DNA of 32,000 nucleotides from Candidatus Saccharimonadota bacterium (GTDB taxonomy: Bacteria; Patescibacteriota; Saccharimonadia; Saccharimonadales; Saccharimonadaceae), in contig JAFWJH010000003.1 of assembly GCA_017511645.1 (NCBI GenBank), forward strand, positions 70,297 through 102,296, given 5' to 3'. Both the position numbers and the translations under genes were made by a program. The notes below the pieces were generated by a model. The model saw only the letters and a program-made list of their open reading frames with translations. It was not told the origin of the DNA and ran no database searches. This document shows, piece after piece, positions 4,910 to 21,857 of the stretch (positions within the stretch are counted from its first letter, which is position 1; every line of letters begins with the position of its first letter).

Positions 4910-4910
4910 C

Positions 4911-5510: not shown

Positions 5511-5537
5511 ATTTTTCTCCTTAAATCCATTATACTC

Positions 5538-5571: not shown

Positions 5572-5594
5572 ATAAATTCTAAGAAGCTGGATTA

Positions 5595-5603
5595 TGATAT
5601 AAT
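5595..5603 (+). promoter_or_regulatory. extended -10 element TGATATAAT
   Basis: Exact TGATATAAT 30 nt upstream of the glycosyltransferase ATG at 5634. Confidence 0.45.
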
Positions 5604-5633
5604 ACGTAAGAGATAACAAAGAATAAACTTAAT

Positions 5634-6782: not shown

Positions 6783-6803
6783 CCGTAATTTTGGCGGCGG
6801 GTA

Positions 6804-6812
6804 TGATATAAT
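6804..6812 (+). promoter_or_regulatory. extended -10 element TGATATAAT for the 17-gene operon
   Basis: Exact TGATATAAT in the 209-nt gap between the GT4 stop (6782) and the preferred SDR start (6992). Confidence 0.45.
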
Positions 6813-6819
6813 AAAAATA

Positions 6820-6991
6820 GTTCTAGATTTCAATTTCATGGTAAGTCTACCCCTAACAAGGTAGTGTGAAATATCGAACCCTGCGTGGAGCACTCGCTCC
6901 AGTTGGCTCGATAGCTTACTGTGAAAAATGAAGTCTAGAACACTCCATGGCGAGTGTTCCACTTGGTTATGGGGATAGTATGGAGAAAATC
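6820..6991 (+). promoter_or_regulatory. long, relatively GC-rich structured 5' leader (candidate cis-regulatory RNA, class unknown)
   Basis: Local hairpins: CTACC/GGTAG (6847-6864), TGGAGC/GCTCCA (6886-6901) and GAACACTC/GAGTGTTC (6938-6959). A possible long-range helix pairs GTTCTAGA (6820-6827) with TCTAGAAC (6934-6941) and competes with the last hairpin. CTCC at 6943-6946 is complementary to the SD GGAG at 6982-6985. Confidence 0.3.
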
Positions 6992-7990
6992 ATGAAAAAG
7001 ATCTCACGTAGAGTATTAGTTACTGGCGCTTATGGATTTTTAGGTAAGTATGTTATTGCCGAATTTTTGGATAACGGATATATTGTCGTTGCTTTTGGCA
7101 GAAATAAGCAAAAAATGTCAGCTTTAAAGCAGCAATATCCGGAAATCGAATTGGCTTACGGAGATTTATGTAGTTCGTCAGATTGCTTAAAGGCTACGAA
7201 AAATATTAATATTGTCGCTCATCTCGGTGCACTTTCAACTGTGTGGGGTAAACGATCCGATTTTTTAAAAACCAATGTCGATGGTACTAAAAACATCTTG
7301 GAAGCCTGTCGTAAAAACAAAGTTAATAAACTCGTGTACATATCATCTCCCAGTATTTATGCTGGCAAATCCGATAAATTAGATATAGACGAAGATGATT
7401 ATGATAGAGACAACAAATTGAACTACTATATTGAAAGTAAAATTCTAGCCGAGAAAGCTATTGAGAAATATGATGACATTAATTGGACAATACTTCGCCC
7501 ACGAGGATTATTTGGGGTAGGTGATACAAGTATCGTTCCTAGACTAATACATGCTAACAAGAAAATAGGATTGCCTTTGTTTGGGGGCGGAAAGAACTAT
7601 GTAGATATGACGTGCGTCGAAAATGTCGCATACGCAGTGAGGCTCGCAGCAGAAAGTAAAAAGTCATCACATAAGATTTATAATATCACCAATGATGAGC
7701 CGCAAGAATTCAAAGGATTGCTGGAGGAATTATTTAAGCAACTTGGCGAAACACCAAGATACAAGAATATTAACTTAAGATTCGCCATCTCGACCGCAAC
7801 CGCCATAGAATCAATTTATAAGGTTTTTCATATTTATAAAGAGCCACCAATTACTAAATATACTATCTGCACTTTGGGCTATAGCCAGACTTTAAATATT
7901 GACAAAGCGAAGCGAGATTTGGGATATAAACCAAAGATGACATTAAGCGAAGGAATCGAGAAATATGCAACCAGCCATCAAAAGTGTTAA
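6992..7990 (+). CDS. extended SDR, NAD(P)-dependent epimerase/dehydratase / 3-beta-HSD-like reductase
   Basis: Rossmann motif VLVTGAYGFLG near the N-terminus and YxxxK as YIESK. I prefer the ATG at 6992 (GGAG 6 nt upstream) over the ORF-track start at 6947. Confidence 0.8.
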   Translation: MKKISRRVLVTGAYGFLGKYVIAEFLDNGYIVVAFGRNKQKMSALKQQYPEIELAYGDLCSSSDCLKATKNINIVAHLGALSTVWGKRSDFLKTNVDGTKNILEACRKNKVNKLVYISSPSIYAGKSDKLDIDEDDYDRDNKLNYYIESKILAEKAIEKYDDINWTILRPRGLFGVGDTSIVPRLIHANKKIGLPLFGGGKNYVDMTCVENVAYAVRLAAESKKSSHKIYNITNDEPQEFKGLLEELFKQLGETPRYKNINLRFAISTATAIESIYKVFHIYKEPPITKYTICTLGYSQTLNIDKAKRDLGYKPKMTLSEGIEKYATSHQKC

Positions 7991-8759
7991 GTATTTTAGT
8001 TGTGGATATTGTACAAATAACCTCGGTCGAGTTTTTAAGGGTATGCGTGGCGAAAAAAGAAAATTCCCAGCCGGAGCATTTTTGATTGAGCACGCTAAGC
8101 ATGGGCTGATTCTTTTTGATACAGGTTATTCTGCTAATATTTGTAAAACTGGTTTTGTTGGTAGAGCTTATAATTTCTTTAATCCCACATTAGTAGAAGA
8201 AAATGACGAGCTAAAGTATCAACTTAGTAAAATCGGGACTCGGCCGGAGGATATTAAGACAATCATACTGTCGCATTTGCACCCAGACCATATTGGTGGG
8301 CTTAGGAGTTTTGGCAAGGCGAATTTTATTGTCTCAAAAGAAACTATAAATACATACAAAAATAGAAGGATACGAGATTTAATAATGCAGCGTTTCTTTC
8401 CTGCCGATTTTGAAGATAGGGCTAACGTAATTTCAGATAAAATGATGGTAACTGAAGTTCTTGGTGCACTGAAAGGTTATGACTTGTTTAATGACGGCAG
8501 TTTAATTTTATTAAAGCTAGGTGGTCATGCTAGCGGTCAATTGGGCACTCTAATAGATAATAAGATTTTGTTAGCAGCAGACTCATGTTGGGGGAATGAT
8601 TTAATTGATCTATCGTACCATATGAAGTTTCCCGCATCATTAATACAGGACAATATGAGAGAATATCGTAATACCCTAGATAACTTAAAGTTATTAAAGA
8701 AAAAAGGTATTAATCTGGTATTTAGTCATGATGTAAATAATAAAAAGGAGCTACTATGA
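7965..8759 (+). CDS. MBL-fold metallo-hydrolase (lactonase/thioesterase-like)
   Basis: 264 aa with SHLHPDHIGG (HxHxDH) and later GGHASG and D/H ligand positions. It overlaps the SDR gene by 26 nt. Confidence 0.8.
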   Translation: MQPAIKSVKYFSCGYCTNNLGRVFKGMRGEKRKFPAGAFLIEHAKHGLILFDTGYSANICKTGFVGRAYNFFNPTLVEENDELKYQLSKIGTRPEDIKTIILSHLHPDHIGGLRSFGKANFIVSKETINTYKNRRIRDLIMQRFFPADFEDRANVISDKMMVTEVLGALKGYDLFNDGSLILLKLGGHASGQLGTLIDNKILLAADSCWGNDLIDLSYHMKFPASLIQDNMREYRNTLDNLKLLKKKGINLVFSHDVNNKKELL

Positions 8760-10033
8760 ATAAAGGCTTAATTCTTAAAACATTTATTCGTGCCCGCTAT
8801 TTTCACAAATTTAAAAGTCGAAGGAGGCTGGAAAAATATCAGCAAAAGCAGACAAAAAAACAACTAGATTTCTTCGAACGCCATTCCCCGTATTTCCAAA
8901 AGTTTAGTGGCAAAACTTTTGAAGAGTTGCCGTATATGAATAAAAAAGTCATGATGGATAATTTTGACAGAATGAATACAGCCGGAATATCAAAGGACGA
9001 TGCCCTTAAGCTAGCTATTAATAGCGAAAAAAGCCGTGATTTTTCAGAAAAGCTGAATGGCTACTCTGTTGGGCTGTCATCTGGGACAAGTGGACACCGT
9101 GGGGTGTTTGTCCTTAGCGACGACGAAATCGCAACGTGGGTGGGTGGCATGATGGCAAAAATGCTACCGAAAGGTAAGATCTTTGGGACCAAAGTTGCGT
9201 TTTTCCTTCGGGCCGACAATAACTTATATGAGTCATCAAATAGTAAGATACTTAAATTTGAGTTTTTTGACATCTTAAAGCCAATGGAACAAAATATAAT
9301 AAAATTACAGGAGTTTCAGCCGACAATTTTGGTCGCACCGCCATCTGTACTGCTCATACTAGCGGAGACTGCCAAAGTCAAGAAGCTGAGCATTAATCCA
9401 GTAAGGATTATATCAGTTGCAGAAGTATTAACAGAAAAAGACGAACAATATTTGAAAAGGGTTTTCAAGCAAAAGATAATATACCAAGTATATCAATGCA
9501 CCGAAGGGTTCCTTGGATACACTTGCGAGTATGGCTCCCTACATCTCAACGAGGATGTTGTAGTGGTTGAAAAGGAGTATCTTGACGACACAAGATTTAC
9601 TCCGGTTATCACGGACTTTGTTAGGACGACTCAACCTATTGTCAAATATCGATTAAACGATATTTTGGTTGAAGATAGAAGGCCATGTAAATGCGGGACA
9701 TCTATGACAAGGCTTAAAAAGATCGAAGGAAGGATGGATGATGTTTTTGAATTTGATGGCGTAAATGATAGAACGATAAAAGTATTCCCTGATTTTATTT
9801 CCAGAGTGGTACTCTACGTGCCCAAAATAAAGAATTATAGAGTAGTACAAGAATCATCCAAAAAAGTCATTTTTTATCTAGATAATATAGACATTGAAAA
9901 TCAAAGACTAATCAAAGAAGAGTTAAAAACTCTCGCTAAGAGAATGCGTTTCAAAATGCCAGCCACTACTTTTAAGAAATATGAATCTGATTTTAGTAAA
10001 AAGATGAAGCGAGTGGAAAGGATAAAAAAATGA
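8756..10033 (+). CDS. PaaK / coenzyme F390 synthetase-related adenylate-forming enzyme
   Basis: 425 aa with GLSSGTSGHRGVF (P-loop-like ANL motif of the PaaK/F390 clade). ATGA start/stop overlap with the MBL gene. Confidence 0.7.
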   Translation: MNKGLILKTFIRARYFHKFKSRRRLEKYQQKQTKKQLDFFERHSPYFQKFSGKTFEELPYMNKKVMMDNFDRMNTAGISKDDALKLAINSEKSRDFSEKLNGYSVGLSSGTSGHRGVFVLSDDEIATWVGGMMAKMLPKGKIFGTKVAFFLRADNNLYESSNSKILKFEFFDILKPMEQNIIKLQEFQPTILVAPPSVLLILAETAKVKKLSINPVRIISVAEVLTEKDEQYLKRVFKQKIIYQVYQCTEGFLGYTCEYGSLHLNEDVVVVEKEYLDDTRFTPVITDFVRTTQPIVKYRLNDILVEDRRPCKCGTSMTRLKKIEGRMDDVFEFDGVNDRTIKVFPDFISRVVLYVPKIKNYRVVQESSKKVIFYLDNIDIENQRLIKEELKTLAKRMRFKMPATTFKKYESDFSKKMKRVERIKK

Positions 10034-10962
10034 GAAATTGTAAAATATCGGGCTATGGATATTATTTACCAAAAAACATAGTGACATTTGGTAATCAAAT
10101 TAGGTACAGAGCTTCAGGCAAGGAAAATCAACTTTTTATGGCGACAAATGCCGCTAAAAAGGCGATGAAAAATGCTAGGCTAAAACCAGAAAATATTGAT
10201 TTGATAATAGCCGCTTCGGCAGTAGGTATCCAACCAATCCCCTGTACGGCAAGCTTAATTCATGAACAAATAATGAACGACTACAACATTCCTGCTATGG
10301 ATATTAATACTACTTGTACTAGCTTTATAACCGCACTGGATATTGCATCGTATCTGATTGCAGCTGGAACATATAAAAATATCTTAATTGTATCAAGCGA
10401 GCTGGCTAGCCCTGGGCTTCCGAAAGATAAAAAAGAAATCTATGAACTATTCTCTGACGGAGCCGCGGCAATTGTACTTTCTCATACTAACGATACGAAA
10501 CGAGGTGTAATAGCCTCTAAACAGTGCACTTGGTCAGAAAGCGCGCACGCGACAGAAATTGTAGGTGGATTAACCGGACTTAATGCCACTAAAATGAACA
10601 ATAAAAACCGAGACAAATATTACTTTAAAATGGAGGGGCTCGATATATTACGTGCATGCACGCGAAAATTACCAAAAATGTTTGACGATTTTGAAAAAGA
10701 GACTAATCTATCATTGGACGATGTAGACTTAGTAATCCCACATCAGGCGAGCAAGGCATTGCCCTTGATTATGAAAAAATTGGGAGTACCAGAAGAAAAA
10801 TACGTTAATCGTGTTGATAACTTTGGTAATCAAGTGTCCGTTTCGGTTCCATTCATGTTATGCAAAATGCTAGAAGAAGGAAAAATCCATACTAGTGACA
10901 AAGTAATGCTATGTGGGACTGCAGCAGGGTTAACATCTAATATATTATTAATGGAGATATAA
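10030..10962 (+). CDS. KAS III / FabH-like thiolase-fold condensing enzyme
   Basis: 310 aa. Candidate Cys-His-Asn triad in DINTTCTSF, VIPHQAS and NFGNQVSVS. ATGA overlap with the upstream gene. Confidence 0.85.
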   Translation: MRNCKISGYGYYLPKNIVTFGNQIRYRASGKENQLFMATNAAKKAMKNARLKPENIDLIIAASAVGIQPIPCTASLIHEQIMNDYNIPAMDINTTCTSFITALDIASYLIAAGTYKNILIVSSELASPGLPKDKKEIYELFSDGAAAIVLSHTNDTKRGVIASKQCTWSESAHATEIVGGLTGLNATKMNNKNRDKYYFKMEGLDILRACTRKLPKMFDDFEKETNLSLDDVDLVIPHQASKALPLIMKKLGVPEEKYVNRVDNFGNQVSVSVPFMLCKMLEEGKIHTSDKVMLCGTAAGLTSNILLMEI

Positions 10963-10963
10963 A

Positions 10964-11200
10964 ATGTTGGAAGAATTTAAAAAGTTTCTAGATGAGGAAT
11001 TGGGCATAGACGATGATATTACATTAGAAACTAGCCTAAGAGACGATTTGATGATTGATAGCTTGGCGACTACGCAATTAGTGCTCTCACTTGAAGAAAA
11101 ATACAATATAAAAGTAGAGCAAAGCGAGCTCGCTAAACTAAAGACCGTAAAGAATTGTTTGGATTTGCTAGCGGAGAAAGGTATAGAAAGTGCCAATTGA
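10964..11200 (+). CDS. acyl carrier protein (ACP-1)
   Basis: 78 aa, acidic, with the phosphopantetheine site motif LMIDSLATTQLV. Confidence 0.8.
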   Translation: MLEEFKKFLDEELGIDDDITLETSLRDDLMIDSLATTQLVLSLEEKYNIKVEQSELAKLKTVKNCLDLLAEKGIESAN

Positions 11201-11555
11201 TAAACTGAAGAAGATTTTAGCCGATTTCGATAGTTCTGATGCAACCGAATTTGAGTACGAGGATGCCGATTTTAGAGTTTCTATAAAGAAGAATGGTCCT
11301 AAAACGGATCAAGAAAAGACTGACTATTCAGATAAACATATTTTGTCGCCGCTGGTAGGCACTTATTATGATGTATCCCCAACCATACAAATAAACGAAA
11401 GAGTTAAAGAAGGTCAGTCTTTATGTATCATTGAAAGCATGAAAATAATGAATAAAATTTGTGCACCGGCTGATTTGATTATTAGAAAAACGTATTTTGA
11501 AAACGGAGAGAGTGTAGAATTTGGCTCTAAGCTTTTTGAGGTTGATTATATATGA
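11190..11555 (+). CDS. accB: biotin carboxyl carrier protein of acetyl-CoA carboxylase
   Basis: 121 aa with a GTG start overlapping ACP-1 by 11 nt. Biotinyl-lysine motif CIIESMKIMNKI in a lipoyl/biotinyl-type C-terminal domain. Confidence 0.8.
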   Translation: MPIDKLKKILADFDSSDATEFEYEDADFRVSIKKNGPKTDQEKTDYSDKHILSPLVGTYYDVSPTIQINERVKEGQSLCIIESMKIMNKICAPADLIIRKTYFENGESVEFGSKLFEVDYI

Positions 11556-12814
11556 TTCAAAAAGTACTAATTGCAAATAGAGGAGAAATAGCAGTAAGAA
11601 TAATACAGACCTGCCGTATTTTGGGTATTAGAACGGTTGTGGCATACTCAAAATGCGATAAAGATACTATGGCGGTATTCTTGGCTGATGAGGCGATTTG
11701 TATTGGTGATAGCAGTCCATCGGATTCGTATCTCAACATTCCAGCAATTCTAGAGGCGGCAAAAAATACGGGATGTGATTCTTTGCATCCAGGGTATGGC
11801 TTTTTAAGCGAAAATGATGAGTTTGCAAAACGAGCCCATGAAAGTGGAATTATATTTATTGGGCCATCAAGCAACATTTTAGAAAAAACTGCAAATAAAT
11901 TCCGAATGAAAGAAACGGCAAGAAAATTAGGAATTCCAGTTATCCCATCAGCTGATGAAGATAAATGTCCACTAATGATTAAATCAAGCTATGGTGGTGG
12001 CGGAAAAGGCATAAAAATAGTAAAAAACAGAGGGGATTTCGACTATTGTCTCAAATCTGCCAAACTAAGTTTGAATACTGGGTTTAGTGGAGACAATTTC
12101 TTCTTGGAACAAATAATAGATTTATATAAGCATATAGATATACAGTTTGTTGCGGACAAATTCGGCAAAATTTCTATTCTACCGGCCAGAGACTGCTCCG
12201 TGCAATCACATTATCAGAAGGTTATCGAAGAAACCCCAGTGTCTAATATACCAAAAGAGCTATTGGAAAAAATGGAACAAGACGCTGTCAAACTTATAAA
12301 AGAGGTTGGATTTGATAATGTCGGGACGATTGAGTTTTTGGTGGATAAACAGATGAACTATTATTTTCTTGAAATAAATTCTAGATTACAAGTCGAACAT
12401 ACTGTAACAGAAGAGGTCACGGGTATAGATCTTGTTGAACAGCAGATCAGAATAGCTTCAGGTCAGAAGAATCGTCTGCCTATGAAAGTGAGTGCTAAAA
12501 AATGTGCCATCGAATGCAGGCTATCTGCTAAGGATAATGGCGAGCTTAATATATTTAGCTTACCTACGGGAAAAGATGTGCGAATAGACACATATATTTA
12601 TCAAGGATACCGAATAAAGCCATATTATGATCCGCTGATTGCAAAAATAATAGTAAGCGACAAGGAAAGGCGGAGGGCGATCTCAAAGATGAAACTCGCA
12701 CTTGATGAAATAATTATTTTAGGTGCTCATACTAACGTTGATGAACTCTACGAGACTATTAGCCGAGAAGATTATATAGTGGGTAGCTATAGCTATTTTG
12801 GAGAGAATGAGTAA
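11552..12814 (+). CDS. accC: biotin carboxylase
   Basis: 420 aa with KVLIANRGEIAVRII.., the ATP-grasp glycine-rich loop SSYGGGGKGIKIV and ..EINSRLQVEHTVTE... Confidence 0.9.
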   Translation: MIQKVLIANRGEIAVRIIQTCRILGIRTVVAYSKCDKDTMAVFLADEAICIGDSSPSDSYLNIPAILEAAKNTGCDSLHPGYGFLSENDEFAKRAHESGIIFIGPSSNILEKTANKFRMKETARKLGIPVIPSADEDKCPLMIKSSYGGGGKGIKIVKNRGDFDYCLKSAKLSLNTGFSGDNFFLEQIIDLYKHIDIQFVADKFGKISILPARDCSVQSHYQKVIEETPVSNIPKELLEKMEQDAVKLIKEVGFDNVGTIEFLVDKQMNYYFLEINSRLQVEHTVTEEVTGIDLVEQQIRIASGQKNRLPMKVSAKKCAIECRLSAKDNGELNIFSLPTGKDVRIDTYIYQGYRIKPYYDPLIAKIIVSDKERRRAISKMKLALDEIIILGAHTNVDELYETISREDYIVGSYSYFGENE

Positions 12815-14436
12815 TGAGTATCCTGGATGAGCAGAAGATAAAAATAAAGAAGCGTAACGCTAGAATCTTAAATAGACCAGCCTGTTCAAACTGCGGTGAC
12901 GAATTGGACGAACTTCTAGTGTGCAAAAATTGCAAACACCATGAGAGGATGCCAGCTCTAAAAAGAATAGAAATTATACGAAAGAATGGTGGAAAATTCA
13001 AACAACTTTTAGCAGAATACGATATAGATAATTCAAGAACATATGATTATAGTGAAAAATTTGAACGGGACAAAAATCGTACCGGCCTCTCTGAATCCGT
13101 CATTGTCGGCAAATGTAAAGTAAACGGTAAAATTTTTATTACTATACTAATGGAACGATATTTTATGGTTGGTACTTTATCGAAGGCAAATGGTGAAAAA
13201 ATCGCGAAAGCCTTCGAATATGCAACAAAGAGTAATCTTCCTGTTGTGGCTTTCTGCGCTGGAGGCGGAGTGCGTATGCAAGAGGGCGCTGTGGGCTTAG
13301 TACAAATGGCGAAGATTGATGCTACTTTGATGAAATTTCGCAAAAAAGGCCTGCCGTTTATTTCTGTTTTAACGGATCCAACTTATGGCGGCACTACTGC
13401 ATCTTTTGGATTAATGGGTGATATAAATATCGCTGAGCCAAATTCCTCAATTGGGTTCGGCGGCAAGATGCTGGTGAAAGACATATTACACGAACAGGTT
13501 GCTGACGATTTTCAAAGTGCAAAATACGTGTTGAAAAGCGGCGGGCTAGACATGATTTGTGAGCGAAAAGATATATTGAATACAATTATTGAGCTTTTAG
13601 CTATACTAAACAAGAACAATTCAATTAAAGCTGAGAATGAAAAACCAGAATATGACCATGGCAATAAAAAACCAGAAATAGTTCTCCAAAATATTAGAAA
13701 CAACTCTAAAACAGTTGGAATCGATTATCTCTTTAAACTTTTTGACAACCCCATAATATTAAAAGGAGATCGAATTTCTTATGATGATCCAAGTTTACTC
13801 ACTGGACTCGGAGAAATATCTGGCATAAAAACAGCTTTCATCATCCAGAATAAAGGCAGAAATCTGAGAGAGAATATAGAGAATAATTACGGAATGACTA
13901 GACCAGAAGGCTTTAGGAAGGCCATTAGAATAGCAAAATTGGCCGAAAGGTTTCACTTGCCCGTTCTGATATTGCTCGATAGTCCTGGGGCGCATCCTGG
14001 AGATGTTGCAGAAAAGAATTGTCAAAGTATTGCCATTTCGGAAAGTATGCTCAATTTGCTGGAAACAAAAACACCAATAGTATCAATAGTGACTGGAGAA
14101 GGTTGTAGCGGTGGTGCATTGGGCTTATCGATTTCGGACGTACTCGCAATGTTTAGTGGAGCAACTTACTCCGTCATATCACCTGAATCCTATTCTGCAA
14201 TTATTTTTAATAAACCCGAAGTCCAGCCAGAATTATTAGCAAACATGAAGTTTACAGCTAAAGATTTATATAACGAGGGATTAGTTGACGAGATTCTAAA
14301 AGAAGGTACATTGGAATATAACACTTTGCAAATAGAGCGCTATTTTGCAGAGTCCTTAGTACGTTTAAGCAAATTTGATATAAAACAATTACTTGATAGA
14401 CGGTATAATAGAATAAGGAACTGGGATAAGCAATGA
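12814..14436 (+). CDS. fused acetyl-CoA carboxylase carboxyltransferase, beta (AccD) plus alpha (AccA)
   Basis: 540 aa. The N-terminal half has the AccD zinc ribbon CSNCG..CKNCKHH and ..GGGVRMQEG..ISVLTDPTYGGTTASF... The C-terminal half has AccA motifs ..NYGMTRPEGFRKA..LLDSPGAHPG..GEGCSGGAL..YSVISPE... Confidence 0.85.
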   Translation: MSILDEQKIKIKKRNARILNRPACSNCGDELDELLVCKNCKHHERMPALKRIEIIRKNGGKFKQLLAEYDIDNSRTYDYSEKFERDKNRTGLSESVIVGKCKVNGKIFITILMERYFMVGTLSKANGEKIAKAFEYATKSNLPVVAFCAGGGVRMQEGAVGLVQMAKIDATLMKFRKKGLPFISVLTDPTYGGTTASFGLMGDINIAEPNSSIGFGGKMLVKDILHEQVADDFQSAKYVLKSGGLDMICERKDILNTIIELLAILNKNNSIKAENEKPEYDHGNKKPEIVLQNIRNNSKTVGIDYLFKLFDNPIILKGDRISYDDPSLLTGLGEISGIKTAFIIQNKGRNLRENIENNYGMTRPEGFRKAIRIAKLAERFHLPVLILLDSPGAHPGDVAEKNCQSIAISESMLNLLETKTPIVSIVTGEGCSGGALGLSISDVLAMFSGATYSVISPESYSAIIFNKPEVQPELLANMKFTAKDLYNEGLVDEILKEGTLEYNTLQIERYFAESLVRLSKFDIKQLLDRRYNRIRNWDKQ

Positions 14437-15221
14437 AACGAGCGTTTATTTTTACTGGACAAGGAGAAGGACTGGGAATTCATAATCCTCAGCTAGCCAC
14501 TTTTTGGATGAGCATTGCTTTAGCGAAAATTTTAATCGCAAATGATATTAAGCCAGATGCGATAGCAGGTCTTAGCCTTGGGGAATATGCGTGTTTTGCT
14601 GTTGCGGATGTTTTTAACGTTGAAGAGCTAGAGCAAATCCTAATATTTAGGCAAAAAATAATGGATGATGCATTAAGAGGCTCAAATACTTCTATGGTGG
14701 CGTGCCTTGGTATGTCAGCAAAAGAAATTGAGAAAATGGCAACGAGGTGCGGTCTTTTTGTTACAAATTATAATTCACCTATGCAAACCGTAGTCGGAGG
14801 AGAAAAGACAAGAATAAAGGAGTTTAAGGATGCTTTCCGGCAATTTAAAAACGCATCGACAATTGATTTGCGAGTAACTGGCGCCTTCCATTCCCCATGT
14901 TTAAATAGTGCCAGCGAAAAGATGAGGAGATTTTTAGATAGCTTTTGCGAGAAAACGCCTACTATACCGATTTATTGTAACTTAACTGGCAAGAAAATAA
15001 TCAAAGATGTCAGAGGAGCGATGGTGAAGCATTTAGTGAGCCCGGTACAATTCCAAAGCATTATTGAAAATATGTTGGATGACTCAGTAGATGAATTTAT
15101 CAGCATCGGCATTGGAACTACGCCGGTAAATCTAATTCGTCAAATATGCAAAGAAAAGGGGGTTCGAGCTAGAGTAAGGAAAGTTGAGTCGCTAGAAGAT
15201 ATTGAAAGGATTATAAAATGA
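14433..15221 (+). CDS. malonyl-CoA:ACP transacylase-like acyltransferase (short FabD)
   Basis: 262 aa with FTGQGEG, the nucleophile motif GLSLGEY, a conserved Arg in ..LIFRQKIM.. and GAFHSP. It is ~45 aa shorter than E. coli FabD between the first two motifs. Confidence 0.8.
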   Translation: MKRAFIFTGQGEGLGIHNPQLATFWMSIALAKILIANDIKPDAIAGLSLGEYACFAVADVFNVEELEQILIFRQKIMDDALRGSNTSMVACLGMSAKEIEKMATRCGLFVTNYNSPMQTVVGGEKTRIKEFKDAFRQFKNASTIDLRVTGAFHSPCLNSASEKMRRFLDSFCEKTPTIPIYCNLTGKKIIKDVRGAMVKHLVSPVQFQSIIENMLDDSVDEFISIGIGTTPVNLIRQICKEKGVRARVRKVESLEDIERIIK

Positions 15222-16444
15222 GACGAGTGGTAGTAACTGGGTTAGGTGCGATTACTCCTATTGGCAATAATGCAAAAGACTTCTGGAATAGCCTAAAGTC
15301 TGGCGAAGATGGCATTAGTGTCTTAGATACGGAAGAATTCGCCGAGTCGTCCGTAAAGTTAGCGGCAACTGTCAAAGATTTAGACTTATCATCCTTGCCA
15401 AAAAGAGATACAAAATTCGATTCGAGATTTACAAATTTTGCGAGAATTGCCGGACGTGAAGCATGGAATGATTCCGGACTAGATATGGCTTTAGAAGATG
15501 CTAAGAAGGTCGGAGTTTATATTTCTACAAGCATTGGTGGACCAGAGACATTGAGTGACGGTGTTAGACAATTAGACACAAAAGGCGCAGCCAGAATTTC
15601 ACCATATTTCCTACAATCAGTTTTGCCAAATACGGCCGCAGCAAAAGTATCAATAGATTTAGGTGCTAAAGGGAGTAGTATGTGTCATGTAGCGGCCTGC
15701 GCAAGTGGTGGCATATCAATAGGTGAAGCATTTCTAAAAATCAGAGATGGAGATAATAATATTTTCGTTGCTGGAGCAGCAGATGCATCTATAACTCCAC
15801 TAACCCTCGCCGGCTTCGCCGCAATGAGGGCTATATATACTGGCGAAGACAAAAAATGCGCTTCAATTCCTTTCAATAAAAAGCGTAGTGGTTTTCTGAT
15901 AGGAGAGGGTGCTGGTGTTCTAGTTTTGGAAGAGCTATCTCACGCGCTAAAAAGAAAGGCTAAGATATATGCCGAGATTGTAGGATACGCTAATAATTCG
16001 GATGCTTTTAATATGGTATCACCAGACTACGAAGGCCTATCGAGCAAGGATGCTATGTTGGGTGCTATTGCCTGCGCCGAGATTAATCCTGACAATATCG
16101 GGTATATCAATGCGCATGGCACATCTACGATATTGGGTGACAAAACTGAAGCAAAAGCCATCCGCGAGATATGGAGTAAGGAATGTCCACCCGTGTCGTC
16201 GATTAAGTCGCAAATCGGGCACTTGCTTAGCGCTAGCGGTGCAGTAGAGGCCATAGCTACGATATTAATGCTGGGGAGCGGAATTATACCCGGTAGTACT
16301 TACAAGTTGGATCTAGAAGACGACTGTGTCTTGAATATCTCTGAAAAAGAGCGGTTGGCCAACGCTAACTATGCTCTATCTAATTCATTTGGTTTCGGTG
16401 GCCATAATGCCTGTCTGGTATTTAAGAAATGGAGCGCGCAATGA
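15218..16444 (+). CDS. fabF: beta-ketoacyl-ACP synthase II
   Basis: 408 aa with VVVTGLGAITPIGN, active-site AACASGG, HGTST, GHLLSASG and NSFGFGGHNA. Confidence 0.9.
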   Translation: MRRVVVTGLGAITPIGNNAKDFWNSLKSGEDGISVLDTEEFAESSVKLAATVKDLDLSSLPKRDTKFDSRFTNFARIAGREAWNDSGLDMALEDAKKVGVYISTSIGGPETLSDGVRQLDTKGAARISPYFLQSVLPNTAAAKVSIDLGAKGSSMCHVAACASGGISIGEAFLKIRDGDNNIFVAGAADASITPLTLAGFAAMRAIYTGEDKKCASIPFNKKRSGFLIGEGAGVLVLEELSHALKRKAKIYAEIVGYANNSDAFNMVSPDYEGLSSKDAMLGAIACAEINPDNIGYINAHGTSTILGDKTEAKAIREIWSKECPPVSSIKSQIGHLLSASGAVEAIATILMLGSGIIPGSTYKLDLEDDCVLNISEKERLANANYALSNSFGFGGHNACLVFKKWSAQ

Positions 16445-16965
16445 AAAGAATTGTTCTAGAAAGCATCAATAGCACCAATGATCATGCAGAAAAAATAGCA
16501 GACAAAACGCATGAAAATATTCTAATCATTGCAAAATCCCAAACGAATGGGCGCGGGCAGTTCGATAGGAAATGGTTTTCCGAACCAAATAAAAGTATTA
16601 CTCTTAGTTTCCTGTTGAAAAACAAAAGTGGAGACAAAAAGTTAAGGAAAGATGCTTTAGAACACATACCAGTTATCATTTCTAAAAAGCTAAATGAACT
16701 ATACGGCGTAAATTCCAAAGTGGTTTTACCGAATGATATCAAGATTAATAATAAAAAAGTCTGTGGTATTTTGATTGAGGCGCATTTTAAGGCCGATACA
16801 CTAGAATATGTCGTAGTAGGAGTAGGGATTAATCTTAATAATGATGATTTTCCGGATGACATAAAGTCGATTGCGACATCTATCAAATTAGAGATAAAAA
16901 AAGATTCAGATGCGGACATTCTCACGGATAAATTAGAGGAGGCCATAGAGGAACTATATGACTAG
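16441..16965 (+). CDS. birA: biotin-[acetyl-CoA-carboxylase] ligase, catalytic domain only
   Basis: QTNGRGQFDRKW matches the GRGRxGRxW biotin-ligase motif, and CGILIE..VVGVGINLN is present. I prefer the ATG at 16441 (ATGA overlap with fabF, GGAG upstream) over 16429. The protein is short (174 aa) and has no HTH domain. Confidence 0.75.
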   Translation: MKRIVLESINSTNDHAEKIADKTHENILIIAKSQTNGRGQFDRKWFSEPNKSITLSFLLKNKSGDKKLRKDALEHIPVIISKKLNELYGVNSKVVLPNDIKINNKKVCGILIEAHFKADTLEYVVVGVGINLNNDDFPDDIKSIATSIKLEIKKDSDADILTDKLEEAIEELYD

Positions 16966-18526
16966 GGCGAATAATTTCTCTGCGATGATTTCTGAAAGTG
17001 TCCAAAAGTATGGGCAGAAAACTTTCTTCGTCGGCGAAAATTTTTCAAAGACCTACGAAGAATTTTATAATGATATCCAAAAATTGTCAGGTTACTTTGT
17101 GGACAATAGTTTAGTTGGCAAAAAGATTGGGATTTATGCGTCTAATTCTTATAGTTGGCTACTATTATTCTTTGCCGTGGCTGCTGACGTTGGAACAATA
17201 GTGCCACTCGACAAAGAGCTGCCAGAAAAAGAGCTTGCATTATCTGCTAAGCGTATCGGTTTGGATTTCATTTTCTATGATGATTTAACGAAAGACAAAG
17301 TAAATTGTCTTCCTAAAAATATCCATGCAGAACATATAAATAAAATAGACGACATCATCAGAGAGACGCCAAATCGTAAAGTCAAAAAAACGTCGAAACG
17401 CGACTGCGCCGCACTATTTCTAACTTCCGGCACAACGTCTAAATCTAAAATCGTCATGTTATCTGAAAAAAACTTAGTTTCTTGTGCCTATTCTTCAGCC
17501 GCCGCTTTTAAGCTAAAATCCACGGATAGGTATTATACAATTTTGCCACTCCATCATACGCTTACTCTAATGTGTGCAGTGTTGGTGCCTATTACCAATG
17601 GATGCTCGATTTGTTTTAGTAAAAATATTAAAGACATGCAGAGAGAAATGTGCTTTTACCAGCCAACTGCACTCGTTGTGGTACCGAGGCTGCTCGAATA
17701 CATTATGAATAATATAAAACTCACAGCTAAGAAAAAACACAAAGAAAAGGCTCTGCAAAAACTAATTTTTATATCAAGAGGAGCGAGGCTATTACACATT
17801 GATATAAGAAAGCCCTTATTCTCTAGTATTCACGCCAGATTTGGAGGCAAGGTTCGCATGATCGCTTGTGGTGGAGCAGAGCTAGATCAAAGGGTTTTTA
17901 ACTTCCTGGACGATTTAGGATTTAATATTTACCAGGGATACGGGTTAACGGAGAGCTCACCGATTTTAACCATTCGCGGAATGTTTGTAAAAAGTAAAAT
18001 TGGCGTCGGTAGGCCGCTAAATGGCGTACATCTAAAAATAGCCAATCCAGATGCGGCTGGTATTGGAGAAATTATTGCCAAAGCTCCACAAGTTATGTTG
18101 GGTTATTATGATGATAAAAAAGCTACAGAAGATGTTTTAAAGAATGGTTGGCTCTACACGGGTGATTTAGGCAGGATAAGAAATGATGGTAATCTAGAAG
18201 TAGTTGGTAGAAAGAAAAACGTCATTGTGACCAGCAACGGTAAAAACATCTATCCAGAGGAACTAGAAACACTGATTAATTATAGCAACATAGTTAAAGA
18301 GAGCATCGTAAATGGAGTTCAAAAGAAATCCGGCTTACAAATTATCGCTACGATAGTACCAGAAGATAAAAACCGGAAAGATAAGTCTCTCGACAGCAAA
18401 ATAAGTAAACTTATTAAAGACATAAATGCAGAATTACCGGATTATAAACGTATCAATAAATACATAATCAAGAAAGATGAATTCGAGAAAACCACTACAT
18501 TAAAGATAAAGAGAGGTGGAAAGTGA
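16958..18526 (+). CDS. ANL-family AMP-dependent acyl ligase (fatty acyl-CoA/ACP ligase or OleC/LstC-like)
   Basis: 522 aa with LFLTSGTTSKSKIV, YQGYGLTES, TGDLG and GRKKNVIVTSNGKNIYPEELE. Confidence 0.85.
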   Translation: MTRANNFSAMISESVQKYGQKTFFVGENFSKTYEEFYNDIQKLSGYFVDNSLVGKKIGIYASNSYSWLLLFFAVAADVGTIVPLDKELPEKELALSAKRIGLDFIFYDDLTKDKVNCLPKNIHAEHINKIDDIIRETPNRKVKKTSKRDCAALFLTSGTTSKSKIVMLSEKNLVSCAYSSAAAFKLKSTDRYYTILPLHHTLTLMCAVLVPITNGCSICFSKNIKDMQREMCFYQPTALVVVPRLLEYIMNNIKLTAKKKHKEKALQKLIFISRGARLLHIDIRKPLFSSIHARFGGKVRMIACGGAELDQRVFNFLDDLGFNIYQGYGLTESSPILTIRGMFVKSKIGVGRPLNGVHLKIANPDAAGIGEIIAKAPQVMLGYYDDKKATEDVLKNGWLYTGDLGRIRNDGNLEVVGRKKNVIVTSNGKNIYPEELETLINYSNIVKESIVNGVQKKSGLQIIATIVPEDKNRKDKSLDSKISKLIKDINAELPDYKRINKYIIKKDEFEKTTTLKIKRGGK

Positions 18527-19665
18527 AACCAATTCGAAAAATCACAAATATAGAGCAATTATATGAGGATGTACAGAGCGCAACCAATGCATATGCAATA
18601 CAGTTCATTCTAAAAACTAGCAGCATTAAAAATAAAGATATAATTGAATGTGTAATTAGGCGAGTAATAAAAGAATGCCCAGAATTTAATGTCTATCTAA
18701 GAAGGGGTAAATTTTATCCACAGCAGCATCCAATCAGTATCCAAGATATTAAAATCAAGGATTCTATTGTCTATAGTCTAGATTTATTTAATCAAAAAAT
18801 AGATCTAATTAGCCACTCAATGGAAGTCTATCTTGTGAAGGCGCCCAAGAGCGATTATTTAGTGTTTCGATTCGCCCATTCGGCAATGGACGGAAAGAGT
18901 GCCCTTCTTTTTATGCAAAACATTGTAAATCTACTAGGCGGGAAAAAGCCACTAAAATGCAAAAAAGCTATCTCCGAGAAAGATTTCTTAAAGAAACTAG
19001 ACTACTACAAGAAGAAAGAACCAAAATTACCCCGAATTATCCATGACGAAGCGTCGATTATCAAACAATACACGACAAGGTGGCAAGTCGTACAATTAGA
19101 CAAGTATGTTTCGGGTATTATAGCCAAACTTTCGTGCCTTTTAGCTCGGGAATTTGAAAGCGACCGGATAAGAGTAATGGTGCCTGTAGATTTAAGACGT
19201 CACGACGGCAACAATCCATATATAGGCAATCTGACCTTGCCAGTTTTTCTAGATGTAGATAAGAGCGATAGTTATACCAAGATTAATGGTGAGCTGTTGT
19301 ATAGCTTGAAGAACAGCAAAGAGTTAAACATCGGCAATACTTTGAACAATTATTATTGTCGTATGCCAAGTTTGTTGCGAAAGACGGGCGTAAAAATTGG
19401 ATGCATGGCAAGTCGACACTACAATAAATTTTCCGTCGGCGCCGTCATATCGCATTTAGGCAGAATAGATTTAAATGAATATTCCAATAAATATTTTAAA
19501 GCTAAAGATTTCGTAGACTTATCAATACAACAACCTCTAGGTGCATTCTCGATAGTTATAGTAGAATGTTCCCATAAGACAAATATCAGTATAGGTTACT
19601 ACGGAGATCAATTCACTGAAGAATATATGAAGTCTCTCATAAAAAAGATAGAGAGGTTAGCATGA
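18523..19665 (+). CDS. condensation/acyltransferase-like protein with HxxxDG motif
   Basis: 380 aa with a GTG start in a GTGA overlap. FRFAHSAMDGKS fits the HxxxDG catalytic motif of C-domain, WS/DGAT and PapA-type acyltransferases. The rest is not recognisable by eye. Confidence 0.45.
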   Translation: MKPIRKITNIEQLYEDVQSATNAYAIQFILKTSSIKNKDIIECVIRRVIKECPEFNVYLRRGKFYPQQHPISIQDIKIKDSIVYSLDLFNQKIDLISHSMEVYLVKAPKSDYLVFRFAHSAMDGKSALLFMQNIVNLLGGKKPLKCKKAISEKDFLKKLDYYKKKEPKLPRIIHDEASIIKQYTTRWQVVQLDKYVSGIIAKLSCLLAREFESDRIRVMVPVDLRRHDGNNPYIGNLTLPVFLDVDKSDSYTKINGELLYSLKNSKELNIGNTLNNYYCRMPSLLRKTGVKIGCMASRHYNKFSVGAVISHLGRIDLNEYSNKYFKAKDFVDLSIQQPLGAFSIVIVECSHKTNISIGYYGDQFTEEYMKSLIKKIERLA

Positions 19666-20081
19666 AAAGTCAAAATTGCCGAGTCGTTAATGGGCTAGTA
19701 ATTCATCACATAGGAGTTGCCACCAATAATTTAGATGAATTAACGGACGAATATCTGCGGGATGGTTATCAAATTACAAACGAGGTCTATGACCCCGGAC
19801 AAAAGGCTAAGTTGCGGTTACTTAGTAAGGATAATCAAAACAGCATAGAGCTAATATATACAGATAATCCAGAATCGCGAGTTTTCAATTTGTCACACAA
19901 CAACTATAAGAAAGAATACCACACCTGTTTTAAAATAAACAATCTTGATCGCGCCATTAAAGTATTCAAAAAAGATGGCTATTCTTTAATCACTAATATT
20001 GAAATAGCTAAATTGTTCAATGGCAGGATATGCTTTATGTACAAGAGCGGTAAACTAATAGAATTAATGGAGGAAATATGA
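19662..20081 (+). CDS. VOC (glyoxalase/bleomycin-resistance/dioxygenase) family protein, methylmalonyl-CoA epimerase-like
   Basis: 139 aa with two beta-alpha-beta-beta-beta half-modules: ..IHHIGVATNNLDE.. and ..YHTCFKINNLDRAIKVFKKDGY...ELMEE. Confidence 0.6.
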   Translation: MKSQNCRVVNGLVIHHIGVATNNLDELTDEYLRDGYQITNEVYDPGQKAKLRLLSKDNQNSIELIYTDNPESRVFNLSHNNYKKEYHTCFKINNLDRAIKVFKKDGYSLITNIEIAKLFNGRICFMYKSGKLIELMEEI

Positions 20082-21649
20082 AAAAGATTTACTGTTATCG
20101 TGATACCGCAATTGAATACTTATTCAAAGACGTAGAAACTATATCGTATAGCGCATATGGTGATATTAAACTATTGAACGACGACACAGATATAATGATT
20201 TTCTATATGCTACCATATGATTATTCTATTAAAGATTTAGTGTCGACGATTAATAGCTATTTTGAACGAGCGAAATACATCATAAACAATTATCCAAATA
20301 GGACAATATTTGCAATAACCCTACATAATTATTTTTACGAATCATTCGTTTTCGGAAATAATGAATTAGAGAAAGCTATTAACTCATATAATGAATATCT
20401 ATATAGCCAGAAAAATGTCAGGGTTATAGATATAGCGCCATTTTATAATAATCATAACGACGTATTTAACCCAAAGTATTATTACTTATATAATGCAATA
20501 ATAAACCCGTCTCTTGCGAAAGATTTTCGGCGTTTTATTTTAGATAAGATGGCGCTGTTTCGAGGAACTCGAAAAAAATGCCTAATCCTAGATTTAGATA
20601 ATACTTTGTGGGGTGGTATTCTGGGTGAAGACGGATTGGCAAATTTACAAATCAGCGGCTCCTATCCAGGCAATTGTTTTCATAGTTTTCAACAAATGGT
20701 TTTGGAGCTAAAAAATCAAGGTATTCTGCTAGGGATTTGCAGCAAAAATAACTATAATGATGTAGTCCTGTGCTTCGAAAAAAGAGATGATTTGGTATTG
20801 TCTCTGGATGATTTTGCTGCCAAAAAGATAAATTGGTCAGAAAAAAGACTTAATATTTCTGAATTAGCCAAGGAACTGAATATTGGTTTAGATAGCATTG
20901 TTTTTATAGATGATAGCCCAGCAGAAAGAGAAAACGTAAAAGCATTGGATGGGGTCACAGTCTTAGACTTCCCAGATTCGCCCTATAAAATGGTTGGGCA
21001 CTTCGCCAAAGATTTTTATAGATATTTCGGAACATATCTACTAACAGAAGACGACGTAAATAAAAATATTTACTATAAACATAAAACGGAAAGTGAAGAG
21101 TTGAGAAGCAGAGTCGAAAACGAGGATGAGTTTATAAAAAAATTGAAAATCAAAATAGCCTACGAGACCATAGACGACAATAATAGCGACAGAATCGCTC
21201 AACTGATCAATAAAACGAATCAGTTCAATTTAACAACTAGGCGTTACGATAAAACCGAATTAGCTAATATGACTGACGCGCTAATAATAGCAATAAAAGT
21301 AAGCGATAAATTCGGAGATCTTGGCCTTACCGGAGTTGCAATAGTTAGAAAAAACAAAGAAGAAGCAACTATAGATACATTTTTAATGAGTTGCAGAATA
21401 TTAGGCAGAAAAATTGAGCGAGAGTTTCTAAAAATCGTATTAAATGAACTAAAAATATTAGGGGTTAAAACGGTCATAGGCGAGTACATAGATAGCAAAA
21501 AGAACGAGCAGACTAAAACATTCTATAGTGATAATGGATTTCGAAAAGTTCCAAATCATTCTCGTGAGGTTCAGCGTTTCAAATACACGCTAACTAAACC
21601 GTTGAAGTATAATAATAATTACATAGTGGAGAAAAAAGATGGAAAATAG
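20078..21649 (+). CDS. FkbH-like HAD-IIIC family protein
   Basis: 523 aa. HAD motif I in CLILDLDNTLWGGILGEDG, then ..GICSKNN.. and ..VFIDDSPAERE... The C-terminal domain has ..FLMSCRILGRKIEREFL.., typical of FkbH-like proteins. Confidence 0.8.
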   Translation: MKKIYCYRDTAIEYLFKDVETISYSAYGDIKLLNDDTDIMIFYMLPYDYSIKDLVSTINSYFERAKYIINNYPNRTIFAITLHNYFYESFVFGNNELEKAINSYNEYLYSQKNVRVIDIAPFYNNHNDVFNPKYYYLYNAIINPSLAKDFRRFILDKMALFRGTRKKCLILDLDNTLWGGILGEDGLANLQISGSYPGNCFHSFQQMVLELKNQGILLGICSKNNYNDVVLCFEKRDDLVLSLDDFAAKKINWSEKRLNISELAKELNIGLDSIVFIDDSPAERENVKALDGVTVLDFPDSPYKMVGHFAKDFYRYFGTYLLTEDDVNKNIYYKHKTESEELRSRVENEDEFIKKLKIKIAYETIDDNNSDRIAQLINKTNQFNLTTRRYDKTELANMTDALIIAIKVSDKFGDLGLTGVAIVRKNKEEATIDTFLMSCRILGRKIEREFLKIVLNELKILGVKTVIGEYIDSKKNEQTKTFYSDNGFRKVPNHSREVQRFKYTLTKPLKYNNNYIVEKKDGK

Positions 21650-21854
21650 AATAAAAGAAATAATGGAACAGACATTTAGGCAAAGTATAAACGACAACTT
21701 CTCTAAAAATGATACTGACAAATGGGACTCGTTTACTCATTTAGATCTGATTGTAAAATTAGAACAGGAGTTTAAAATTTCTTTTTCACCAGAAGAGATA
21801 GGAAGCATTGAATCTTATAATGATATAAAAAAGATTATTAAGAGTAAGTTCTAA
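21639..21854 (+). CDS. acyl carrier protein (ACP-2), partner of the FkbH-like protein
   Basis: 71 aa with the site motif KWDSFTHLDLIVKLE. It overlaps the FkbH-like gene by 11 nt. Confidence 0.7.
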   Translation: MENRIKEIMEQTFRQSINDNFSKNDTDKWDSFTHLDLIVKLEQEFKISFSPEEIGSIESYNDIKKIIKSKF

Positions 21855-21857
21855 AAG

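Follow-up and report, generated by a model that had tools for sequence, protein, structure and literature searches.

Why would a Saccharibacterium carry what looks like a full set of genes for making and delivering malonyl units? Saccharibacteria are tiny parasitic bacteria that, together with other members of the CPR (candidate phyla radiation), are defined by missing pathways, fatty-acid synthesis among them. The question is raised by a stretch of 32,000 nucleotides from a Saccharibacterial metagenome-assembled genome (MAG), the whole of which we analysed and call the window; positions below are window coordinates unless a locus with an L number is named. Six genes at 11190-16965, all on the forward strand, encode AccB, AccC, a fused AccD-AccA, a FabD-like protein, FabF and a BirA-like protein. 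A preliminary description of this DNA had read them as a complete acetyl-CoA carboxylase (ACC) with its own biotin ligase, FabD and FabF. This reading stood: all six genes were found there, their identities given by Pfam and NCBIfam profile matches and by alignments against solved structures, and the catalytic motifs are intact in all six, the short proteins included. We think it likely that 5634-22379 as a whole is one horizontally acquired operon for a small thiotemplated pathway, resembling a fatty-acid synthase or polyketide synthase (FAS/PKS) joined to nonribosomal peptide synthetase (NRPS) parts and leading to a glycosylated acyl product, and that 11190-16965 is its built-in malonyl supply.

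We asked first how these genes are arranged. The series of forward-strand genes from 5634 to 22379 is unbroken in the map of open reading frames (ORFs), with start/stop overlaps of 1-11 bases, and we therefore regard it as a single operon. The six genes, which the preliminary description called a "module", do not make up a stand-alone unit, as they are embedded in the larger cluster. The cluster ORFs are collinear with those of a second Saccharibacterial genome (L014), with zero indels, and the ratio of nonsynonymous to synonymous substitutions (dN/dS) between the two lies at 0.00-0.36 for the 14 genes compared, from the glycosyltransferase gene through the condensation-domain (C-domain) protein gene. 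The cluster genes are thus under purifying selection. A promoter and terminator scan of 5400-23300 gave counts equal to the shuffled expectation and is therefore uninformative, and an Rfam scan returned tRNA only, with no riboswitch or leader.

We next examined the carboxylase subunits. AccB, the biotin carboxyl carrier protein (BCCP; 11190-11555, 121 aa), matches Pfam Biotin_lipoyl (E=1e-12) and the BCCP model TIGR00531, and its biotinyl-Lys85 lies within an SMKIM motif of the (A/V/S)MKM type. AccC, the biotin carboxylase (11552-12814, 420 aa), has all three biotin-carboxylase domains and aligns over 397 residues to the solved biotin carboxylase 8hz5 (E=1e-106); it keeps the glycine-rich ATP loop (GGGGKG), FLEINSRLQVEH and IECR, EINSRLQVEH is intact in the alignment to 8hz5, and the Glu, Asn and Arg residues of catalysis are in place. 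The third gene (12814-14436, 540 aa) encodes a fused AccD-AccA carboxyltransferase with an N-terminal zinc ribbon, as identified by structure alignments: residues 30-264 resemble S. aureus AccD (2f9i chain B, E=6e-54) and residues 281-536 resemble S. aureus AccA (2f9i chain A, E=2e-48), while a CxxC...CxxC zinc ribbon, GGGVRMQE and PGAHPG are visible in the translation. The GAFH and Arg motifs of the FabD-like protein are consistent with malonyl-CoA as the product of the predicted ACC. Because the cluster also holds a Glyoxalase_4 gene, we considered whether it might instead encode a propionyl-CoA carboxylase with a methylmalonyl-CoA epimerase. This was rejected, since the carboxyltransferase is of the AccD/AccA type, the FabD-like protein has the malonyl-type GAFH, and the score of the supposed epimerase (TIGR03081) is far below its cut-off.

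The genes that would use the malonyl unit follow directly. The FabD-like malonyl-CoA:ACP (acyl carrier protein) transacylase (14433-15221, 262 aa), identified by profile and by alignment with FabD proteins of solved structure, retains the motifs GQG, GLSLGE and GAFHS as well as the Arg of FRQ that selects for malonyl; its catalytic Ser (GxSxG), His and Arg and the GQG Gln are invariant in an alignment of seven sequences. The FabF-type elongating ketosynthase (15218-16444, 408 aa) has the triad C161/H300/H335 and passes the cut-off of NF005589, the subfamily model for 3-oxoacyl-ACP synthase (KAS) II (445 bits against 387), while falling below that of the stricter TIGR03150 (444.5 against 493.75). 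Two ACPs had been predicted in the cluster, and both are present. ACP1 (10964-11200) carries its Ser33 in a DSL motif and matches NCBIfam acyl carrier protein models, and an identical gene is annotated PP-binding; ACP2 (21639-21854) carries Ser31 in a DSF motif and has weak NCBIfam ACP matches, and its L010 homologue has a faint PP-binding match. The operon ends, as had been proposed, with an Sfp-type 4'-phosphopantetheinyl transferase (PPTase) at 21858-22379 (173 aa), which scores 34.3 bits against Pfam ACPS (cut-off 25) and has both signature motifs, IGIDIE and WVIKEAYSK (WxxKEAxxK), in alignment with Sfp. A full Sfp-type enzyme has two pseudo-symmetric halves and about 230 aa; the window's PPTase aligns with Sfp over residues 61-169 of the latter, which indicates a shortened N-terminal half. 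On the reverse strand, the PPTase stop region is overlapped by the gene for a zinc-ribbon protein of 60 aa (22363-22545; CxxC...CxxC; phage family phrog_2945, E=6e-15).

The last of the six genes encodes a BirA-like biotin-protein ligase (BPL) consisting of the catalytic domain only (16441-16965, 174 aa; 178 aa if started from an upstream ATG at 16429, other gene calls starting at 16441). It scores 128.8 bits against TIGR00121, above the cut-off of 83.1, with a match spanning positions 3-167 of the 235 in the model. Its alignment with S. aureus BPL is limited to residues 87-256 of 323, from which we conclude that the N-terminal helix-turn-helix (HTH) and the C-terminal domain are both absent. 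The latter, an SH3-like domain, is present in all BPL structures that our searches returned, and those found by sequence or by fold all have at least about 220 residues. An AlphaFold model of the protein (pLDDT 93) superposes on the catalytic domain of S. aureus BPL and other solved BPLs, every one of them longer, at a TM-score of 0.83-0.86 when normalised by the query, and 0.47 when normalised by the full-length BPL. The catalytic lysine, K106, is invariant in 31 sequences. The biotin loop (residues 37-45) reads GRGQFDRKW as against GRGRxGRxW, so that the second Arg is replaced by Gln; this position is Gln in the Saccharibacterial copies and Thr in the Firmicute cluster copies. We take this second Arg to be the equivalent of E. 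coli R118, mutation of which loosens the retention of biotinyl-AMP and makes the ligase promiscuous. In the same loop, the Saccharibacterial copy of L008 has GYGQ.

Do the short lengths of these enzymes reflect streamlining, as the preliminary description had suggested? For two of them they do. Compared with its Firmicute cluster homologues, the FabD-like protein lacks a 39-residue segment right after GQG; the identical deletion is found in all four Saccharibacterial copies, and the Firmicute copies have 299-305 aa. AccC has lost 14 and 8 residues at two internal sites, which accounts for its shortness, and its length is 418-421 aa in Saccharibacteria as against 432-435 aa in the Firmicute loci with a full ACC (L011, L012 and L028), which makes this shortening specific to the Saccharibacterial copies. 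The idea fails for BirA, which has 166-177 aa across every cluster version, the Firmicute ones included: its shortness is a family trait and not a peculiarity of the Saccharibacterial copies. Short ligases also occur in Candidatus Pelagibacter, where the minimal BPLs likewise have 174 aa and BPL_LplA_LipB as their only Pfam domain. They differ in sequence (33-40% identity to the cluster BirA) and in setting, as the Pelagibacter BPL is presumably the cell's only BirA while the BirA-like protein of the window is borne by the cluster.

We next asked whether related clusters in other organisms carry the same supply genes. Four genes upstream of ACP1 encode a FabH-like enzyme, an OleD-like reductase, a TIGR02304 adenylase and a metallo-beta-lactamase-fold (MBL) hydrolase, which we refer to as the core. 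Scanning 185,579 species genomes for the core adenylase gave 11 loci, nine of them close relatives (45-100% identity). The hosts of these nine are two Saccharibacteria, an Erysipelotrichaceae MAG, two Clostridia MAGs, Lachnospiraceae UBA3804, a Clostridiales MAG, Gracilibacillus oryzae and a Bacteriovoracaceae MAG. The core reductase, MBL, adenylase and FabH-like genes are common to the close loci, except that L016, at 2.6 kb, holds only the MBL and adenylase genes; the taxa with the core are Bacillaceae, Lachnospiraceae, Bacteriovoracaceae, low-GC Bacilli and Saccharibacteria.

From host to host, the supply genes can be ordered in a graded series, and they correlate with host type. At one end, L018 from Lachnospiraceae UBA3804 has the core, an ACP, FabF and a condensation-adenylation-(thiolation) protein; ACC, FabD and BirA are all missing within 10 kb. 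L027, a Firmicute-like locus of 48% GC, has the core, an ACP, a carboxyltransferase, FabD and FabF, and lacks AccB, AccC and BirA, so that its carboxyltransferase would need the AccB and AccC of its host; this intermediate version spans 5773-13678 of its locus. AccB, AccC, AccDA, FabD and FabF are all present in L011, L015, L017 and L028, from Clostridia, Erysipelotrichaceae and Bacilli MAGs of 26-28% GC, and a BirA gene is seen in L011 and L028, L015 and L017 ending short of its expected position. The full set of ACC and BirA genes is carried by the window, L008, L010, L029, L013 and L014, all of them Saccharibacterial (L010 probably so). In the L028 locus (a Bacilli MAG of 27% GC), a tyrosine integrase and three small ORFs are inserted mid-cluster at 8412-10451, between the ANL ligase gene and the gene for a fusion of condensation and adenylation domains.

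Taken with the report that Saccharibacteria are generally without de novo fatty-acid synthesis (PMC10633639) and with the kept catalytic motifs, the graded series supports, within limits, the reading that the pathway supplies its own malonyl units. The same genes would also be expected if ACC, BirA and FabD were simply a dedicated booster of precursor supply, as in actinomycete polyketide clusters, independent of any ACC or type II fatty-acid synthesis (FAS-II) of the host. A booster would raise malonyl levels with or without these host systems, and in that case the supply genes say nothing about a deficiency of the host. Precedent for it exists in angucycline clusters, whose acyl-CoA carboxylase and PPTase supply malonyl-CoA in hosts with normal FAS (PMC4943663), and a full ACC is also found in the Firmicute versions L011, L015, L017 and L028, with BirA seen in two of them. 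We nevertheless hold the booster to be unlikely, if a serious contender: fatty-acid synthesis is reportedly missing from the host phylum (PMC10633639), the Lachnospiraceae and 48% GC Firmicute-like loci carry no or only a partial ACC and no BirA, and a biotin ligase would be superfluous in a host that already has one.

Is the cluster foreign to its host, and is its placement in a Saccharibacterium real? The genes on either side of the island, ribosomal and translation genes among them, code for an oligopeptide-binding protein, L31, S2, a 196-aa EF-Ts, RRF, UppS and RseP, and the flank and cluster proteins are exactly those of NCBI MBR2993951-MBR2993984, from a "Candidatus Saccharibacteria bacterium" MAG with contigs of up to 197 kb. 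Sample and isolate names point to a rumen or ruminant gut metagenome as its source. The cluster has a GC content of 0.364, as against 0.429 and 0.436 in its flanks. At its right edge lies a large serine recombinase gene (23299-24963, forward strand; Pfam Resolvase, Recombinase and Zn_ribbon_recom; phrog_95 integrase, E=3e-68), and a tRNA-Leu(GAG) gene (24900-24990, reverse strand) overlaps the last ~60 bases of this ORF, which suggests that tRNA-Leu, or a spot beside it, is the integration site of the island or of an adjacent element. At the left edge, directly upstream of the cluster, an AbiEii nucleotidyltransferase toxin and its DUF6088 partner form a type IV toxin-antitoxin/abortive-infection pair (3920-5510, reverse strand; Pfam). 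A search across the window for a second copy of the tRNA-Leu region found no att-like repeat, only a 12-mer chance match, and no empty site was recovered: the contigs that share the left-flank gene are identical to the window and stop before the island.

To place the cluster further, we compared its carboxyltransferase with homologues. AccDA homologues fall into two groups, one cluster-borne (43-99% identity) and the other, at about 36% identity, made up of AccD-AccA fusions of Lachnospiraceae and other Clostridia that are annotated as ACC carboxyltransferase. In a neighbour-joining tree the four Saccharibacterial sequences form one clade within the cluster-borne Firmicute group, apart from these annotated Lachnospiraceae copies. 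Low GC, the edge with recombinase and tRNA-Leu and a carboxyltransferase nested among Firmicute sequences together identify an acquired biosynthetic cluster rather than a remnant of FAS-II. Further Saccharibacterial contigs (L008, L029 and probably L010) carry the same cluster at other sites of the chromosome; the Saccharibacterial copies are 50-61% identical and are flanked by differing genes, which speaks for an old acquisition or for spread within the phylum.

The GC step, together with the fact that the closest non-Saccharibacterial relatives are Firmicutes, is also what one would see had a Firmicute island been mis-joined to Saccharibacterial sequence in assembly or binning. To such an artefact we give almost no credence, because assemblies made independently of one another show the same junctions (ENA scaffold_558, a Logan contig, NCBI contigs of up to 197 kb and, from different studies, the genomes of two GTDB species), which makes a chimera unlikely, and because diverged copies lie on other Saccharibacterial contigs between different flanks of Saccharibacterial type. 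A phage or plasmid origin was likewise considered and rejected: megablast of 5600-22400 against plasmid and phage collections was empty, and viral contigs, when scanned with the profile of the core adenylase, yielded no relative. All PHROGs matches in the window are accounted for by the recombinase, by AbiEii and by one protein of 60 aa.

Several further observations concern the surroundings of the island. Between the tRNA/recombinase genes and the L31 gene, adjacent genes at 25093-27125 encode proteins of 347 and 312 aa that have zero matches in Pfam, NCBIfam or PHROGs. A metagenome contig (L004, 1-6414) is 99.5% identical to the window over rpsB-tsf-frr and diverges totally just upstream of rpsB (~27777), with unrelated small ORFs in place of L31 and the two uncharacterised genes; the region left of rpsB is therefore strain-variable. 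The usual gene block is rpsB-tsf-pyrH-frr. In the window (28633-29907), EF-Ts has only 196 aa and no pyrH lies between tsf and frr, a reduced arrangement.

We next considered what the remaining genes of the operon, again all on the forward strand, might do with the malonyl units. The first (5634-6782) encodes an Mgs-like GT4 glycosyltransferase (Pfam Glycos_transf_1 and Glyco_transf_4) whose best family is alpha-monoglucosyl-diacylglycerol synthase (NF049988, 215 bits, below the cut-off of 400). The core begins with the OleD-like, NAD(P)-dependent reductase of the 3beta-HSD/epimerase family (6947-7990; Pfam 3Beta_HSD and Epimerase), for which the best NCBIfam models are OleD 2-alkyl-3-oxoalkanoate reductases (205 and 194 bits, below the cut-off of 580). 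The lactonase-like MBL-fold hydrolase (7965-8759; Pfam Lactamase_B, HLHPDH motif) has as its best NCBIfam matches the AttM/AhlS N-acyl-homoserine lactone (AHL) lactonases and 4-pyridoxolactonase, all below cut-off, and is a candidate for a release or lactone step. The PaaK-like adenylate-forming enzyme (8756-10033) is secure as a member of TIGR02304, "F390 synthetase-related" (537.6 bits against 251.9), and its profile matches phenylacetate-CoA ligase 4r1l (E=2e-14). The FabH-like KAS III (10030-10962; Pfam ACP_syn_III, triad Cys96/His238/Asn267) finds as its top PDB matches Aquifex FabH and then the pyrone-forming MxnB and CorB.

Downstream of BirA lies the gene for an ANL-family acyl-CoA/acyl-AMP ligase (16958-18526, 522 aa; Pfam AMP-binding, E=2e-59), with long-chain fatty-acid-CoA ligase models as its best NCBIfam matches, below cut-off. 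The next gene (18523-19665) encodes a free-standing NRPS-type C-domain protein of 380 aa with the HxxxDG motif (H119/D123/G124), which is invariant across 14 homologues. The protein has no Pfam match at the default threshold, Pfam Condensation matching below threshold only. Its AlphaFold model (pLDDT 88) finds NRPS condensation, epimerization and cyclization domains as top Foldseek matches (E~1e-17), and as modelled the protein has the C-domain fold, V-shaped with two lobes like those of chloramphenicol acetyltransferase (CAT). Its homologues in L010 and L018 are fused to an adenylation domain. It is followed by a VOC/glyoxalase-family protein (19662-20081; Pfam Glyoxalase_4, E=4e-11), weakly similar to methylmalonyl-CoA epimerase (TIGR03081, 35 bits, below 115), and by an FkbH-family protein with a HAD-IIIC phosphatase domain (20078-21649; TIGR01686, 270.4 bits against 146.65; DLDNT at 172), which is predicted to load a glyceryl unit onto ACP2. 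This 3' part is swapped between very close genomes. L013, from the Saccharibacteria isolate RGIG4349, is 97-100% identical to the window through the end of the ANL ligase gene, and similarity stops at 18527; at 19768-20859 of L013, a gene for a 363-aa GT2-like membrane glycosyltransferase replaces the module of C-domain, VOC, FkbH, ACP2 and PPTase genes. A logic like that of PqsA-E (ligase, FabH-like enzyme, MBL thioesterase) was also considered and is an analogy only, as PqsD and PqsC are merely low among the FabH matches.

Could the operon instead be a compact de novo fatty-acid synthase for membrane lipids, one that would make the Saccharibacterium autonomous in lipids again? FAS-II uses ACC, FabD, FabH, FabF and ACP for its entry and condensation steps, the glycosyltransferase is nearest to a diacylglycerol glucosyltransferase, and FkbH could give a glycerol-type backbone. 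The reductive steps would then come from the OleD-like reductase and from genes elsewhere. Pfam and NCBIfam searches and the translations reveal no homologue of FabG, FabZ/FabA or FabI/K/L in the operon. The cluster alone therefore cannot run a full fatty-acid cycle and is not a fatty-acid synthase. The TIGR02304 adenylase, the lactonase-like MBL and the NRPS C domain of the window's cluster are not FAS-II components, and a Gracilibacillus genome and a MAG of the Lachnospiraceae have the same core. We regard a membrane-lipid synthase as improbable.

We thus return to an acquired pathway with its own malonyl supply, for which the following sequence of events can be proposed; its enzymatic steps, substrates and step order are all read from family membership. 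The minimal BirA would put biotin on Lys85 of AccB, AccC would carboxylate this biotin with ATP and bicarbonate, and the fused AccD-AccA would move the carboxyl group to acetyl-CoA, giving malonyl-CoA. The Sfp-type PPTase would turn apo-ACP1 and apo-ACP2 into their holo forms, and the shortened FabD would load malonyl on ACP1. The TIGR02304 adenylase, the ANL ligase or both would activate a carboxylic acid as the starter, for which a scavenged fatty or aryl acid is plausible. FabH-like enzyme and FabF may then carry out one or a few decarboxylative condensations with malonyl-ACP, after which the OleD-like reductase would reduce the 3-oxo group and the lactonase-like MBL would release or cyclise the chain. 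In the variant of the window, a glyceryl unit derived from glycolysis would go onto ACP2 by way of FkbH, the free-standing C domain would couple the acyl and glyceryl parts, and the Mgs-like GT4 would add a sugar.

A number of points weigh against this reading or limit it. The NCBIfam equivalog cut-offs are missed by all four carboxylase subunits (accB 85.5 against 115, accC 446 against 626, accD 231 against 317, accA 210 against 319), and the FabD-like protein reaches 135.6 bits of the 260.9 required by TIGR00128 and falls short of a full-length FabD fold. With the ACC, FabD, OleD-like and Mgs-like scores all below equivalog cut-offs, exact substrate assignments are not secured. Given the lost C-terminal domain and the Gln at the R118-equivalent position, the activity of the BirA-like protein is assumed from its sequence. 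No characterised cluster matches the operon. The PPTase, present in the window and L008, was not found in the Saccharibacterial L029 within the sequence available, and in L013, within the sequence available, it is absent together with the whole 3' module. Neither the cluster nor the rest of the window holds a gene for the synthesis or transport of biotin or CoA, and for this reason the preliminary description overstated the case in calling the genes "cofactor-autonomous": the ligase and the transferase are encoded, the synthesis and transport of their cofactors are not. We infer that the host has no other ACC, BirA or FAS, but host gene content was read from the window, and a housekeeping ACC, BirA, AcpS or FAS-II may exist elsewhere in the MAG. 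Likewise, if the low-GC Firmicute hosts with full ACC and BirA do have FAS-II, then in those hosts the module is a booster and not a necessity. The proposal that the pathway is suited to hosts without ACC and FAS has the backing of the phylum report, the graded supply genes and the kept motifs; the PPTase is not a constant part of the cluster.

A different account starts from the core. Its FabH-like enzyme, OleD-like reductase, TIGR02304 adenylase and MBL may constitute a widely transferred pathway of its own, an Ole- or beta-lactone-like route built from non-homologous parts that may lead from a 3-oxo acid through a 3-hydroxy acid and its adenylate to a lactone. Saccharibacteria may have added ACC, BirA, FabD, the PPTase in some loci, and the module of FkbH, C domain and glycosyltransferase, so as to arrive at a surface or signalling glycolipid of an episymbiont. 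We offer this as a doubtful, tentative idea; if it is true, an otherwise lipid-auxotrophic episymbiont would gain its own route to a glycolipid built on glycolytic carbon.

What do these results mean? Biosynthetic gene clusters are uncommon in streamlined genomes (PMC12455944), and here a Saccharibacterium has acquired, and kept under purifying selection, a thiotemplated pathway needing malonyl-ACP, in a version that appears to carry every enzyme for making and delivering malonyl units. The graded series starts without any ACC, passes through the carboxyltransferase on its own and ends with full ACC and BirA, joined by the PPTase in some loci; it is a natural experiment in how transferable pathways gain self-sufficiency on entering metabolically poor hosts. 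The locus also offers enzymology a group of naturally minimised enzymes (BirA of 174 aa, FabD of 262 aa, AccC of 420 aa and an Sfp-type PPTase of 173 aa), and it draws attention to the uncharacterised conserved four-gene core. In the searchable literature we found no earlier description of this cluster type, nor of an ACC in Saccharibacteria.

Finally, we compared the cluster with known systems. It has all four components of a heteromeric ACC (AccB, AccC, AccD and AccA) with their signature motifs, and the catalytic domain of the BirA ligase; its AccD-AccA fusion has the same architecture as the Lachnospiraceae proteins annotated as ACC carboxyltransferase. It differs from heteromeric ACC systems in that its genes are part of a biosynthetic operon and not of a fab or housekeeping locus, its AccC has two deletions, its BirA lacks the HTH and C-terminal domain, its scores are below equivalog cut-offs, and the host phylum of the window is not expected to have any ACC.

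The core invites comparison with OleABCD, in which OleA is a thiolase, OleD a reductase, OleC an adenylating lactone synthetase and OleB a hydrolase. It similarly combines a thiolase-fold condensing enzyme, a reductase with OleD as its best match, an adenylate-forming enzyme and a lactonase-related hydrolase. However, the condensing enzyme is nearer to FabH (E=1e-39) than to X. campestris OleA (~1e-13), the adenylase is of the PaaK/F390 type and not the OleC type, the hydrolase has an MBL fold and not an alpha/beta fold, the OleD score is below cut-off, and the window has malonyl-dependent FabF and FabD. Pfam and NCBIfam searches found no OleB-type alpha/beta hydrolase in the operon, and the core falls outside the OleA, OleB and OleD families.

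The FkbH part resembles the "glycerate utilisation" cassette of tetronate clusters (PMC7489565), which comprises an FkbH-like glyceryl-S-ACP synthase, a dedicated ACP and a FabH-like ring-former. In the window, too, the gene right after FkbH is that of its own ACP, and the same operon encodes a FabH-like enzyme. Unlike in the cassette, this FabH-like enzyme belongs to a core that exists without FkbH (L011, L018 and L020), the typical acyltransferase/dehydratase pair is not seen, and a C-domain protein adjoins FkbH instead.

The closest precedent for the supply genes themselves is found in angucycline biosynthetic gene clusters, where the acyl-CoA carboxylases JadJ and GreN/PgaI and a cluster PPTase feed malonyl units and activate carriers (PMC4943663). 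The likeness lies in a carboxylase and a PPTase encoded inside the cluster, and cluster-embedded enzymes of these two kinds are thus already known from actinomycete polyketide clusters (PMC4943663). The angucycline clusters encode one or two carboxylase subunits and sit in hosts with full primary metabolism, whereas the window encodes a complete ACC together with its biotin ligase, FabD and FabF, and its host phylum is reported to be without FAS. What is unusual here is the complete supply set, including biotin ligase and FabD, its presence in a CPR host, and the uncharacterised four-gene core.

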